IMG/VR virus record: IMGVR_UViG_2563366931_000002
From: a virus
Taxonomy: Duplodnaviria > Heunggongvirae > Uroviricota > Caudoviricetes
Direction: 5' to 3' (one strand)
DNA: 14,469 nt
In this document: in pieces, positions 8,165 to 13,241 of the stretch
Position numbering within the stretch: the first letter of the stretch is position 1
How the letters are laid out: each line of letters starts with the position of its first letter
The notes under the pieces: model-generated
Database searches by the model: none
Seen by the model: the letters and a program-made list of their open reading frames with translations, nothing else
Told to the model about the DNA's origin: nothing
Position numbers and translations under genes: made by a program

Positions 8165-8179
8165 ATTTGTGGAGTGAGT

Positions 8180-10549
8180 ATGGCAGTACAGATTTCAGGT
8201 GTGCTGAAAGATGGTGCGGGAAAACCAATACAGAACTGCACTATTCAACTGAAGGCAAAGCGTAACAGCACCACGGTACTGGTGAACACGGTGGCCTCTG
8301 AAAATCCGGATGAAGCCGGGCGTTACAGCATGGATGTTGAGTATGGCCAGTACAGCGTTATCCTGCTTGTTGAAGGTTTTCCGCCTTCACATGCCGGAAC
8401 CATTACCGTCTATGAAGGTTCCAGACCAGGTACGCTGAATGATTTTCTCGGTGCCATGACGGAAGATGATGTCATGCCGGAAGCATTGCGTCGTTTTGAG
8501 GAAATGGTGGAAGAAGCGGCACGCAACGCCGAAGCCGCCTCTCAGAGCGCAGCGGCGGCAAAGAAATCCGAAACTGCAGCGGCATCATCGAAGAACGCGG
8601 CGAAAACCTCAGAAACGAATGCAGCTAATAGTGCACAGGCGGCAGCGACCTCAAAGACTGCATCGGCAAACTCCGCGACAGCAGCCAAAAAATCAGAAAC
8701 CAACGCGAAAAACAGCGAGACAGCCGCAAAGACGAGCGAAACCAACGCAAAGTCCAGCCAGACGGCAGCGAAAACCAGCGAAACGAATGCCAAAGCCAGT
8801 GAAACTGCGGCAAAAAACAGCCAGGTTGCAGCAGCCCAAAGCGAGAGCGCGGCAGCCGGTTCTGCGACTTCAGCAGCTGGATCAGCAACTGCTGCGGCTA
8901 ACAGCCAGAAAGCTGCGAAGACGAGTGAAACTAACGCAAAGTCCAGCCAGACGGCAGCGAAGACCAGCGAAACGAATGCCAAAGCCAGCGAAACTGCGGC
9001 GAAAAACAGCCAGGATGCAGCAGCCCAAAGCGAGAGTGCCGCAGCTGGTTCTGCAAGTGCGGCGGCTTCTTCTGCCACTGCATCAGCCAACAGTCAAAAA
9101 GCAGCAAAAACCAGTGAAACCAACACAAAGGCGAGCGAGACTGCGGCGACTAACTCGGCGAAAGCATCCGCTGCAAGCCAGATGGCTGCAAAAGCAAGTG
9201 AAGACGCAGCCAGGGAGTACGCAAGCCAGGCAGCTGAGCCGTATAAACAAGTTTTGCAGCCGTTGCCTGATGTGTGGATACCGTTTAATGACTCGATGGA
9301 TATGATTACAGGATTTGGCCCGGGATATAAAAAAATAACAGTGCGCGATGATGTGGTCACTATACCATCCGACAAAATTGTCCCGTTTTCCCGCGCGAGT
9401 TCCGCGACCTATATCAATAAGTCCGGCGCTCTTACCATTGCAGAAATTAATGAGCCACGTTTTGAAAAAGAAGGGCTGTTAATTGAAGGGCAGAGAACAA
9501 ATTACTTCACAAACTCAAACGCTCCGGAATTGTGGAATAAAAATCCAGGCCTGAAGATAAGCGAGACAAAAACCGATTCCAGGGGTTTTAAATATGCAAC
9601 GTTTACCCCAGAAAAATATTTAGATAGTTCTGGCTCATATGGAATTATATCAGGGGCAGCAGCAAATAAGATAGCGGTAGTCAAAAATGATGCAGTTACA
9701 ATATCCTTTAGAGCAAAAGGGGATAATGTAAGATTTGCGGCTAGATTTGATAAAGGGGATTCGCCAGTTGCTGTAGCTGCCATTTTTATTGATAGCGCCA
9801 CACTAGATACATTCACGTCTGGAGCAGATGCGTCTAATATTGCTGTGAAAAATGTTGTTCGTGACGGTGAGTGGGTTGCTGTAGAGGCTGTTTATAAAGT
9901 AACAGACGACTCTACATATATTAACGGCGCCATTCTGATGTCAAACAAACTGGGTGCTAATTTTGATAAGACTAGTTTTATGGATGTAACCACCCCTCAA
10001 ATAGAGCTAGGTTCTTGCTTATCATCATTTATTGTCACACCAGGTGTTCCTGCGACAAGGGCGAGTGATATGGTTATTTTTTCAACCAGAAATAACATAA
10101 GTTCTGTCCCTTTAAGCTGTCTTGTTGAAATACATAAAAATTGGGACTCTACGCCAAATCAGGCCCCACGAATTTTAACCACTATTGGCGTGGCGACTAA
10201 TGATGAACAACTGGTATTGGCTTTCAGGACGCCTACAAGTCCGGATGTAGAACCTTTACCTTATGTTCAGTTTGGAGTGAGATCTGCATATCTTAGTCCA
10301 TCTGTGAAGGCCGGGCGCAAAATGATTGCTGGTTTTGTCTGTAATAGCTCGACTGAATTTCGTTGCTGTTGTAATGGTTACCTGTCACCTGTTCAGACTT
10401 CGTCATGGAAGAATACCGGAGCTGCACATGAAATACGTATTGGGGGAACTTCTGCTGGAGGAGAACGTCACTTGTTTGGTCACGTTCGTAACCTGAGAAT
10501 ATGGCATAAAGAATTAACTGATGCGCAAATGGGGGAGAGTATTAAATGA
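8180..10549 (+). CDS. stf: Side tail fibre protein (Stf-like), mosaic: conserved lambda-Stf-like N-terminal domain, Ala/Ser/Thr-rich repeat shaft, low-GC C-terminal domain (possibly ConA/LamG-like lectin fold). The ORF track starts at GTG 8174; the ATG at 8180 with GGAG 5 bp upstream is the more likely start.
   Basis: The N-terminus from the ATG (MAVQISGVLKDGAGKPIQNCTIQLKAKRNSTTV...GRYSMDVEYGQYSVIL) closely resembles the lambda Stf N-terminus as I recall it. The central region has KTSETNAK / AAKNSQ repeats. The 3' half falls to roughly 40% GC. The C-terminal motif (HLFGHVRNLRIWHKELTDAQM) resembles the end of LamG-like jellyroll domains; this is inference. Confidence 0.8.
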   Translation: MAVQISGVLKDGAGKPIQNCTIQLKAKRNSTTVLVNTVASENPDEAGRYSMDVEYGQYSVILLVEGFPPSHAGTITVYEGSRPGTLNDFLGAMTEDDVMPEALRRFEEMVEEAARNAEAASQSAAAAKKSETAAASSKNAAKTSETNAANSAQAAATSKTASANSATAAKKSETNAKNSETAAKTSETNAKSSQTAAKTSETNAKASETAAKNSQVAAAQSESAAAGSATSAAGSATAAANSQKAAKTSETNAKSSQTAAKTSETNAKASETAAKNSQDAAAQSESAAAGSASAAASSATASANSQKAAKTSETNTKASETAATNSAKASAASQMAAKASEDAAREYASQAAEPYKQVLQPLPDVWIPFNDSMDMITGFGPGYKKITVRDDVVTIPSDKIVPFSRASSATYINKSGALTIAEINEPRFEKEGLLIEGQRTNYFTNSNAPELWNKNPGLKISETKTDSRGFKYATFTPEKYLDSSGSYGIISGAAANKIAVVKNDAVTISFRAKGDNVRFAARFDKGDSPVAVAAIFIDSATLDTFTSGADASNIAVKNVVRDGEWVAVEAVYKVTDDSTYINGAILMSNKLGANFDKTSFMDVTTPQIELGSCLSSFIVTPGVPATRASDMVIFSTRNNISSVPLSCLVEIHKNWDSTPNQAPRILTTIGVATNDEQLVLAFRTPTSPDVEPLPYVQFGVRSAYLSPSVKAGRKMIAGFVCNSSTEFRCCCNGYLSPVQTSSWKNTGAAHEIRIGGTSAGGERHLFGHVRNLRIWHKELTDAQMGESIK
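8727..8865 (+). repeat. Intragenic direct repeat copy A (139 bp) within the fibre shaft; repeat period 189 bp (63 codons)
   Basis: Aligned by eye to 8916..9054 with about 10 mismatches in 139 bp. It encodes AKTSETNAKSSQTAAKTSETNAKASETAAKNSQ.AAAQSESAAAGSA. Confidence 0.85.
8916..9054 (+). repeat. Intragenic direct repeat copy B (139 bp) within the fibre shaft; more diverged partial copies flank it
   Basis: Near-identical to 8727..8865 at nucleotide level. Flanking sequence (about 8560..8726 and 9055..9180) contains degenerate versions of the same unit. Confidence 0.85.
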
Positions 10550-10827
10550 AAGATTTAACACTCAAATTTGCAGACAGGGCCGACTTTTCGGCCTTTATGG
10601 AGAGCATTGGCTATTATGATGACGAGTTGATGCAGGATGATATTCTTATTGACGTGATAGGTAACGTGTACAAAGAAACCGGAGAACTGACTGAAGATGG
10701 CGAACCGGTATGTGTTAAGGAAGACGGATATTTTGTAAACGTGCGCATCATTAATGATGCAAAAAAATCGTCAATATTCGATGAATACGCGGTTGTTGTT
10801 GAACATCAACTTCGTGGCTGGATGTGA
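10546..10827 (+). CDS. Hypothetical small acidic protein (93 aa), translationally coupled to the fibre gene; function unknown
   Basis: The ATG overlaps the fibre stop (ATGA) and has a GGGGGAG Shine-Dalgarno-like sequence about 8 bp upstream. Low GC like the fibre 3' half. No motif I recognise. Confidence 0.5.
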   Translation: MKDLTLKFADRADFSAFMESIGYYDDELMQDDILIDVIGNVYKETGELTEDGEPVCVKEDGYFVNVRIINDAKKSSIFDEYAVVVEHQLRGWM

Positions 10828-10836
10828 GGGAGACAA

Positions 10837-11541
10837 ATGGCTACATCGACAGTAATTCCGGGAGACATCACCACGCTGAAGGGAGATGTCAGTAAAGCGA
10901 AGGAAGATATTTCCTCAATTAACAGTAAAGTATCAACGCTTCAGACTGATATGACCAGTGCAAAGCAGGATATCAGCTCCAGATACACAAAAACTGAAGT
11001 TGATAATAAGCTGAAAAACAAAGTGGAAGTGAACGATCTGGAAAGTGGTCGTTATGGCGGAGATTTTTATCCACTGACAGGTCGTGAAGCGTTTTATTTA
11101 TGGAATTTGGCCACGACTACAGCGGCGGCAAACCTTTATCTTAATCCTGACCCTGCAATTTCGTCTGTACTGCGGTCAACATCGTCTATCCGCTATAAGC
11201 ATTCAGTAGAGACGATAGATTCAGAGCACGCCGATCTCATTTTCAGGATGCGCCCTGTATGGTACAGGTCACAATGCGAAAATGACAGGCGTGACTGGGG
11301 ATTCTACGGATTGATTGCCGAGGAAGTAGGAGAAATTGCCCCTCAGTTTGTACACTGGCGATCAGCTAACGAAGATGATGCACGGGAAGCTATTTCCAGC
11401 AATGGCCTTGTTGCCGAAGGTGTAATGTACGAACGTCTGGTTGTTCCACTGATTCACCATATCCAGAAACTGACCGAAAGAGTTGATGAACTTGAGTCAG
11501 AATTGAAGTTGTTATCAACTTCCCGAAGCGATATCGGATAA
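10837..11541 (+). CDS. Short tail-fibre-like protein: N-terminal coiled coil plus C-terminal intramolecular-chaperone (peptidase S74-like) domain, 234 aa
   Basis: GAGGGAG Shine-Dalgarno upstream of the ATG. The N-terminal roughly 70 aa have heptad-like Ser/Thr/Lys/Asp periodicity. The C-terminus carries motifs typical of fibre/endosialidase C-terminal chaperone domains: SSIRYKHSVETID (Ser-x4-Lys), MRPVWYR, GLIAEEVGEIAPQFV, GVMYERLVVPLIHHIQKLTERVDELE. Confidence 0.7.
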   Translation: MATSTVIPGDITTLKGDVSKAKEDISSINSKVSTLQTDMTSAKQDISSRYTKTEVDNKLKNKVEVNDLESGRYGGDFYPLTGREAFYLWNLATTTAAANLYLNPDPAISSVLRSTSSIRYKHSVETIDSEHADLIFRMRPVWYRSQCENDRRDWGFYGLIAEEVGEIAPQFVHWRSANEDDAREAISSNGLVAEGVMYERLVVPLIHHIQKLTERVDELESELKLLSTSRSDIG

Positions 11542-11551
11542 AGGAGGAGTA

Positions 11552-11845
11552 ATGGATATAACACCTTTTCTTCATGCGCTTTGTGCTGTGGCTGCGCAGG
11601 TACTGATTGGTCTTTTTACCGGAAACTGGGTTTACGGGGCGATAGCCGGTTGTACGTTCTTCATTGCGCGTGAACACACCCAGGCAGAATATCGCTGGAT
11701 TGAAATGTTCGGGCATGGCAAGCGAATGAATATGCCGTGGTGGGGCGGTTTTGATTCGCGCGCATGGGATGTGGCAAGCCTGATGGATTTTGCTGTGCCG
11801 GTGGTGGCGTGTCTGCTGGTCTGGCTGTTGGTTAATCGTGGGTGA
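11552..11845 (+). CDS. Hypothetical small membrane protein (97 aa, 2-3 predicted transmembrane helices), last gene of the co-directional tail-region cluster
   Basis: Strong AGGAGG Shine-Dalgarno 6 bp upstream of the ATG. Hydrophobic stretches FLHALCAVAAQVLIGLF, VYGAIAGCTFFIA and LMDFAVPVVACLLVWLLV. No family recognised. Confidence 0.55.
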   Translation: MDITPFLHALCAVAAQVLIGLFTGNWVYGAIAGCTFFIAREHTQAEYRWIEMFGHGKRMNMPWWGGFDSRAWDVASLMDFAVPVVACLLVWLLVNRG

Positions 11846-12046
11846 AAAAAGGTGAGCTGTATATGCAACGGAGGAAGAAAGATCGTTGCTGGAAGCCTGA
11901 AAAAAGTATCGGGTGCTGCTAAACCGTGTGGACACTTCCGTAGCACCAGATATCGAGTGGCTTATTCAACCATAATAAACAGTATGTATATCATAGGTTA
12001 TTAATTGTGAGTTTTTTCGGTGTGTTATTTGTTTGTTTGATGTTAT

Positions 12047-12062
12047 GGAAGGTGCGAATAAG
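12047..12062. repeat. IS5 terminal inverted repeat (transposase-distal end)
   Basis: GGAAGGTGCGAATAAG read directly; matches the 13226..13241 reverse complement at 15 of 16 positions. Confidence 0.9.
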
Positions 12063-12192
12063 CGGGGAAATTCTTCTCGGCTGACTCAGTCATTTCATTT
12101 CTTCATGTTTGAGCCGATTTTTTCTCCCGTAAATGCCTTGAATCAGCCTATTTAGACCGTTTCTTCGCCATTTAAGGCGTTATCCCCAGTTT

Positions 12193-13218
<1,026 letters not shown>

Positions 13219-13225
13219 TCAGGGA

Positions 13226-13241
13226 CTTGTTCGCACCTTCC
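13226..13241. repeat. IS5 terminal inverted repeat (transposase-proximal end)
   Basis: CTTGTTCGCACCTTCC read directly; reverse complement GGAAGGTGCGAACAAG. Confidence 0.9.

Follow-up and report, generated by a model that had tools for sequence, protein, structure and literature searches.

The gene called X throughout this report, a 97-amino-acid ORF on the plus strand at positions 11552-11845 of the window, and its homologues lie directly 3' of a tail fibre or tailspike gene across many unrelated types of phage. This synteny is our strongest result, and the pattern seen at the level of the family is more interesting than the single gene. The window, that is, the whole stretch of 14,469 nucleotides that was analysed, covers the tail end of a lambdoid prophage, which lies at the DLP12/argU-side locus of E. 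coli. Its genes are ordered H (partial), M, L, K, I, J, three genes encoding proteins of 791, 93 and 234 amino acids, X, IS5 and appY. Strain 118UI carries the same stretch without IS5, followed by appY, ompT, envY and nfrA. The features surrounding X are:

8174..10549, plus strand: side-tail-fibre-like protein of 791 aa, GTG start, PHROG 1419/5939
10546..10827, plus strand: ORF of 93 aa, PHROG 1361, unknown function, overlapping the stop of the 791-aa gene
10837..11541, plus strand: short tail fibre of 234 aa with an S74 intramolecular chaperone domain at aa 116-172, directly upstream of X
11542..11547, plus strand: Shine-Dalgarno AGGAGG, 4 nt before the ATG of X, read from the sequence
11552..11845, plus strand: X, predicted inner-membrane protein of 97 aa, PHROG 1443, UniRef name 'Ybl63', WP_000355607.1 (analysed by dN/dS and AlphaFold2)
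11865..11975, plus strand: remnant of a tail fibre assembly gene, from the 118UI annotation of the identical stretch (offset 4499)
12047..13241, minus strand: IS5 (transposase 12193-13209), flanked by TTAT on either side and inserted between appY and the end of the prophage

X starts with the ATG at 11552, ends with the TGA at 11845 and encodes 97 amino acids. The ORF and its strong AGGAGG, both pointed out in an earlier note on this DNA, are readily read in the sequence, with 4 nt separating the Shine-Dalgarno from the start codon. The leader AAAGGAG(G/T)AGTAATGGATATA is common to X of the window and its homologue in the phage Gally. X matches the PHROG 1443 profile over its full length (E = 3.5e-58, residues 1-96 of 97 against profile positions 1-96 of 97), has 450 clusters of homologues and shows dN/dS values of 0.17-0.34 against five homologues, confirming that it is a genuine gene under purifying selection. 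The earlier note had recognised no family; one does exist, as PHROG 1443 and under the UniRef name 'Ybl63' carried by the exact sequence, with no function assigned to it. The GC content of X (52.7%) is, as previously remarked, nearer to that of the tail core from H to J (55.5-59.7%) than to that of the three neighbouring fibre-region genes (40.8-47.6%). X had also been described as the last plus-strand gene before IS5, which holds for intact genes, but the pseudogene remnant at ~11865-11975 intervenes.

To survey the position of X, selected neighbours were checked with Pfam and PHROG, longest-ORF calling being unreliable in high-GC genomes. The arrangements found were:

Tritos, lambda-like: fibre, X, then pin and int
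Gally, P22-like: tailspike, X, int
Aeromonas and Leclercia HP1/P2-like prophages: start of X abutting or overlapping the fibre stop, with further tail and baseplate genes after it
Citrobacter lambda-like prophage: J, pectate-lyase tailspike, X
Ackermannviridae genome of 160 kb, virulent: X between two tailspike genes
PhiR41_1, SSU5-like phage-plasmid of 108 kb: J, Stf, Stf, 92-aa ORF, X
EC.W1-9, another temperate phage type: 'eliminase' tailspike, X, holin, endolysin, integrase
Desulfovibrio: X after a tailspike
Chelativorans: X after a tail protein
Phage HC6 (L006 3965-4120): decayed, unannotated fragment of X after an S74-type fibre
Kuttervirus KFSST3 (L165 3501-3656): decayed, unannotated fragment of X after a tailspike-cluster gene

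Thus, the position at the end of the tail cluster that the earlier note considered for lambdoid prophages is conserved far beyond them. In virulent Aeromonas jumbo phages, too, a copy of X adjoins a protein with a weakly fibre-like N-terminus, and the decayed fragments in HC6 and KFSST3 point to repeated gain and loss of the gene. The proteins encoded upstream of X carry an S74 chaperone, a pectate-lyase, a P22 head-binding or a ConA-like lectin (PHROG 5939) domain. The 791-aa protein of the window itself combines a prophage tail fibre N-terminal domain with a ConA-like lectin/glucanase domain; tail proteins of the PHROG 5939 type are found directly upstream of X in Chelativorans, with a 4-nt overlap, and within ~300 nt upstream of it in Pantoea and Comamonas. 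Such domains are typical of fibres that bind or cut glycans, and, judging from the domain families, all of these proteins may bind glycans. A link of X to the S74 self-chaperone domain was considered and rejected: the domain is absent from the Gally tailspike, one Aeromonas fibre and the pectate-lyase tailspikes.

X does not follow the fibre that precedes it. Copies 94-97% identical to one another lie behind fibres of 234, 346 and 676 amino acids. Between the 346-aa and 234-aa fibres the similarity is limited to 32 residues at the N-terminus and a weak match in S74; the 676-aa and 234-aa fibres have nothing significant in common, and the Gally tailspike is unrelated to the 234-aa fibre. Neither of the two longer fibres thus has a receptor-binding region in common with the 234-aa one. 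Near-identical copies behind unrelated fibres indicate that X is not matched to the receptor of the adjacent fibre, and a tie between X and that fibre's receptor specificity was rejected on these grounds. What looks like an exchange is seen when an Agtrevirus-like Ackermannviridae genome (L160 4398-7311) is compared with pSal-SNUABM-02 (L162 3001-6089). The former encodes an 845-aa tailspike and X where the latter encodes a 1011-aa protein and no X; the swap comprises the distal part of one tailspike together with X, and the two genomes become homologous again 14 nt past the stop codon of X. With the right border just after X, the mobile unit appears to be the fibre plus X. X is the unchanging right-hand member of a 'receptor-binding-protein cassette' that can be swapped.

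Copies of X also occur on bacterial chromosomes, in Sphingomonas arvum as well as in several MAGs of Alphaproteobacteria, and resemble their flanks in GC content. Three of them follow ligA within a recN-(hydrolase)-ligA-X arrangement (L152 5933-8282 in Sphingomonas arvum; L155 5881-8225 and L137 5395-8258 in two unclassified Alphaproteobacteria/Pseudomonadota MAGs). These ligA-adjacent copies, next to the gene for NAD-dependent DNA ligase, have native GC and Arg-rich C-terminal tails. Other chromosomal sites are downstream of genes for pnp, AMP nucleosidase, cytidine deaminase and DAHP synthase, and an all-against-all comparison of neighbours found no conserved partner gene at the alphaproteobacterial loci. 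These copies, with native GC in recN-ligA-X and other housekeeping contexts, would suit a general cellular membrane protein (a small enzyme, an ion-conducting unit or a regulator) that hitch-hikes beside fibres, serving as a conserved flank at which fibre cassettes recombine and having a role unrelated to receptors. The 94-97% identical copies behind unrelated fibres and the one swap border right after X fit such a passenger as well. Nevertheless, the linkage to fibres persists across very different phages, with start and stop codons that often overlap or abut, which argues that co-expression is under selection, and the phage copies are under purifying selection; we regard a mere passenger as quite improbable.

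An exhaustive profile search collected 447 representatives of the family at 50% identity. The best 150 of these 447 relatives are all stand-alone proteins of ~60-146 aa, typically ~90-110 aa, and hence offer no domain fusion that would hint at function. X matched no Pfam family (E ≤ 0.1), no NCBIfam model and no PADLOC anti-phage defence model at E ≤ 1; 115 diverse relatives matched no meaningful Pfam family (E ≤ 1), a few of them showing weak matches to the PhoR N-terminal hairpin, VirB3 and holin_8 models. PDB sequences searched by profile yielded nothing, nor was there a fold match, and a literature search with the accession, the PHROG identifier, the motif and 'Ybl63' returned nothing relevant. 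Scanning IMG/VR with X recovered near-identical E. coli prophages only.

Three helices, at aa 4-23, 26-52 and 74-96, are indicated both by hydropathy and by AlphaFold2 modelling from 69 homologues (mean pLDDT 92.5, pTM 0.74), in line with the two to three transmembrane helices suggested before. X can therefore be predicted, with confidence, as a membrane protein of three helices, with the following parts:

11561..11620, plus strand: predicted helix 1, aa 4-23; near-invariant His8, and Gln16 in close relatives
11627..11707, plus strand: predicted helix 2, aa 26-52; 14 hydrophobic residues, then invariant Arg40-Glu41 and Gln44-Ala45-Glu46-Tyr47-Arg48-Trp49
11669..11767, plus strand: most conserved core, aa 40-72, AREHTQAEYRWI..G.GKR.NMPWWGGFD.R.W, with ~5 Lys/Arg
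11771..11839, plus strand: predicted helix 3, aa 74-96; conserved Asp79 and Pro83

The hydrophobic part of helix 2 is only ~14 residues long and continues into the invariant polar segment REHTQAEYRW. Arg40 and Glu41 do not vary in the 115 diverse members, His8, Gln44, Ala45, Glu46, Trp72 and Pro83 are at least 90% conserved, and Arg48, Arg58 and Asp79 stand at 85-95%. The register of a helical hairpin would place His8, Glu41 and Asp79 at equal depth near one face of the membrane. Lys and Arg residues average 5.3 in the 34-residue loop after helix 2, 0.1-0.2 in the turn between helices 1 and 2 and ~0.7 in each tail, a distribution that favours an N-in, loop-in, C-out orientation; the core of aa 40-72 is probably cytoplasmic by this count. 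Homologues from Sphingomonads and some from enterics have longer C-terminal tails rich in Arg, which argue for the opposite orientation and leave the topology uncertain.

To learn when X may be expressed, we considered its signals in the window together with published RNA data. X is separated by 10 nt from the TAA of the 234-aa fibre gene, whose last base is 11541, and no promoter or terminator was predicted between the two genes in a consensus-only promoter scan. The short gap and the lack of predicted signals suggest that X of the window is co-transcribed with the fibre genes, and is probably a late gene rather than one expressed from the prophage. An intrinsic terminator precedes X in Tritos (fibre/X, L002 5965-5987) and in Gally (tailspike/X, L003 4789-4819) and none does so in the window, indicating that X is wired into transcription differently between phages; the Gally copy, GALLYPH_17, has a strong terminator and 200 nt of AT-rich spacer ahead of it. 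The RNA data concern prophages of E. coli LF82, not the strain of the window (PMC9928086, tables S1 and S4). There, the Tritos copy TRITO_22 (97% identical) yielded 1-17 reads in LB, DMEM and macrophages, with a log2FC of 0.2, while the three fibre-region genes upstream of it rose by log2FC 5.4-7.9; an ORF placed like the 93-aa ORF of the window reached log2FC 7.85 in macrophages. GALLYPH_17 (77% identical) was at prophage background in LB (18 versus a median of 15.6) and increased in macrophages by log2FC 4.9, along with the tailspike and mnt genes. Neither copy is among the morons named by those authors (PMC9928086). Together, these data argue against steady expression of X from a dormant prophage.

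This bears directly on the suggestion of the earlier note that X is a prophage-expressed moron conferring superinfection exclusion or lysogenic conversion. The description of X as a small membrane protein and an accessory gene at the end of a tail-fibre cluster stands; expression in lysogens, the part of the idea for which transcriptomes had been proposed as a check, is not supported, with no promoter predicted in the window, a silent Tritos copy and a Gally copy at background in LB and induced in macrophages. Several observations do speak for a moron: the place of X after the tail fibres at the prophage end and in the tailspike-int slot of Gally, a GC content unlike that of its neighbours, and the Gally copy, a separate unit behind a terminator, going up ~30-fold in macrophages or DMEM. 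Against it, the window copy has a 10-nt gap to the fibre gene and no predicted promoter, neither LF82 copy was called a moron, X also occurs in virulent phages (Ackermannviridae and the Aeromonas jumbo phages) and inside tail operons, and its chromosomal copies lie in housekeeping contexts such as ligA and pnp. If a moron is taken to be a unit with its own promoter and terminator that is transcribed in the uninduced lysogen, X does not look like one, with the caveat that the Gally copy is induced in macrophages. We consider a moron unlikely.

The suggestion of the earlier note is borne out in part, X being an accessory membrane gene of the host-recognition module. Our best explanation, to which we give a rough probability of only 0.3, is that X is an accessory of the envelope or receptor pathway acting on a conserved inner-membrane component, most plausibly of undecaprenyl-linked glycan assembly. 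In the window, as far as its sequence tells, X would be made late, together with the fibre genes and not from the repressed prophage. It would act through the near-invariant polar cluster of His8, Arg40-Glu41, Gln44, Glu46, Arg48 and Asp79, which the helix register would bring to one, probably cytoplasmic, membrane face. The cluster would recognise a component of the inner membrane that has stayed conserved from Alpha- to Gammaproteobacteria and, as a best guess, disturb the way in which surface glycans are put together on undecaprenyl phosphate at this membrane. Receptor display may then be lowered or altered, providing exclusion or preventing readsorption independently of the particular receptor of the neighbouring fibre.

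The choice of glycan assembly follows from the types of fibre domain upstream of X, from X standing in place of O-antigen conversion genes and from charged residues that are invariant in an enzyme-like manner. O-antigen conversion genes lie 3' of tailspikes in several phages, as gtrABC in P22, oac in Sf6 and the polymerase inhibitors such as Iap in epsilon15 and D3; their products are serotype-specific membrane proteins that act on the assembly of undecaprenyl-linked glycans. X occupies the slot after the tailspike in two temperate lineages, Gally (tailspike-X-int) and EC.W1-9 (tailspike-X-lysis genes), a slot that we take to hold O-antigen conversion genes in P22 and epsilon15. X differs from these genes in that it matches neither the GtrA nor the acyltransferase Pfam models, is not constitutive in lysogens according to the LF82 RNA-seq, and is found in virulent phages, inside tail operons and conserved across host classes.

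A second comparison is with Cor (T1, phi80, N15, HK022) and Llp (T5), which are likewise small accessory genes beside receptor-binding or tail-fibre genes of temperate and virulent phages. Cor and Llp act on the entry pathway and not on the virion; they are outer-membrane lipoproteins with a signal peptide and a lipobox, and each blocks the receptor of its own phage (FhuA). X resembles them as a small accessory gene beside fibre genes in phages of both lifestyles. However, its N-terminus MDITPFLHALC has neither a basic n-region nor a lipobox ([LVI][ASTVI][GAS]C), Cys11 being preceded by H-A-L and not conserved. X is, moreover, modelled as a three-helix inner-membrane protein and does not co-vary with the adjacent fibre. 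The Pfam, NCBIfam and PADLOC scans found no homology of X to Imm, Cor/Llp, Gtr, holin or defence families.

Several points count against the glycan-assembly reading. Sequence and structure searches give X no apparent relative of known function. The closest studied copy, that of Tritos (97% identical), was silent in all conditions tested. Late expression leaves little time to change glycans already on the surface. X abuts the lysis cassette in beta-proteobacterial prophages. Finally, X is carried on the chromosomes of Sphingomonads, which are not known to have classical LPS.

The lack of a match between X and the receptor used by the adjacent fibre is also what would be expected of a block downstream of adsorption. 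X could prevent the entry of phage DNA at the inner membrane, like T4 Imm, P22 SieA and HK97 gp15, acting during infection or, where it has its own promoter, in lysogens. These proteins of the inner membrane are small and expose little of themselves outside the bilayer, and their genes are not linked to fibre genes in the manner of X. X is small and, by its model, almost wholly embedded in the membrane, and it is present in temperate and virulent phages alike. On the other hand, the Pfam scans gave no similarity to Imm_superinfect or other families, Imm_superinfect not being among the 25 Pfam families matched by most of the 115 relatives at E ≤ 1. The same X is found in sipho-, myo- and podoviruses, whose crossing of the inner membrane differs; its strictly conserved charged cluster, which sets it apart from these proteins, resembles a catalytic or ligand site more than an arms-race interface; and there are chromosomal copies beside ligA. 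An entry block seems doubtful to us on balance.

The context of X in Comamonas, Acidovorax and Pantoea keeps a role in lysis alive as a rival. In lambda-like prophages of these genera a lysis cassette immediately follows X (L087 8300-10033; L112 8320-9693; L117 8301-9576; L127 8337-9841 in beta-proteobacterial and Pantoea prophages), consisting of one to three small membrane proteins, a 67-aa pinholin-like one included, a SAR-type lysozyme (Phage_lysozyme) and Rz/Rz1, with the Rz1 lipoprotein embedded in Rz. X could accordingly be a holin, an antiholin or a regulator of lysis timing. Class I holins such as lambda S and P22 gp13 have three helices, an N-out/C-in topology, a basic cytoplasmic C-terminus and a gene adjacent to that of the endolysin. 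With ~100 aa and three predicted helices X has their size and shape, it lies just upstream of holin, endolysin and spanin genes in the prophages above and in EC.W1-9, and two family members match Phage_holin_8 weakly (best E = 0.0027). Yet those cassettes already hold one to three other small membrane proteins, including the pinholin-like one, and in most other phages X lies beside fibre genes and apart from the lysis genes, as in the E. coli lambda-like, P22-like, HP1/P2-like and Ackermannviridae genomes; the window has no endolysin gene. X itself matches none of the holin families in Pfam, lacks both a dual-start motif and a charged C-terminal tail (it ends in ...VNRG), its 34-residue central loop is long and highly conserved, unlike that of holins, and its Lys/Arg distribution favours N-in/C-out. 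Chromosomal copies exist as well. A lysis function is therefore, in our judgement, very unlikely.

A further possibility starts, like the glycan-assembly reading, from undecaprenyl-linked glycans and has X act as a 'fibre guardian' that masks or shuts off their assembly so that new fibres escape trapping at the membrane. Fibres that bind or cut glycans would fold in the cytoplasm, where their target glycans form on undecaprenyl phosphate at the inner face of the membrane. X, produced alongside the fibres from one cassette, might use its invariant His/Arg-Glu/Glu/Asp cluster as a minimal enzyme or lipid-carrier binding site, and virions, once released, would encounter less receptor on debris. 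The alphaproteobacterial chromosomal copies could then represent a cellular ancestor regulating the same pathway. We rate this as a long shot. The probability that is left falls to something outside the best explanation and the four rivals weighed above.

No other parts of phage genomes are exchanged and engineered as much as the genes of host recognition, and the conserved X travels with these genes in lambda-like, P22-like and P2-like phages, a phage-plasmid and virulent Ackermannviridae. Should X control receptor display, entry or fibre assembly, this would affect the engineering of host range, in which cassettes are usually moved without X, would bear on exclusion between gut coliphages and would help to annotate thousands of 'hypothetical' genes. 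X is very small for a protein with a strictly conserved charged cluster that is also found on bacterial chromosomes, and thus an attractive structural and biochemical target.

The window holds several minor features of its own. The junction formed by IS5 between the prophage end and appY was found in 0 of 5,426 complete E. coli genomes. The S74 domain of the 234-aa 'mini-fibre' is of a self-cleaving type, and the mature part would comprise ~115 residues after cleavage. The first 32 residues of this fibre match the N-terminus of the 346-aa Tritos fibre and are probably an attachment module. ORFs comparable in position and size to the 93-aa ORF accompany X in Tritos and PhiR41_1. The tail fibre assembly pseudogene just 3' of X has an internal stop and lacks its N-terminus, and this remnant suggests that an older pair of fibre and chaperone was once located here. 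The terminal repeats of the IS5 element read GGAAGGTGCGAA and TTCGCACCTTCC.
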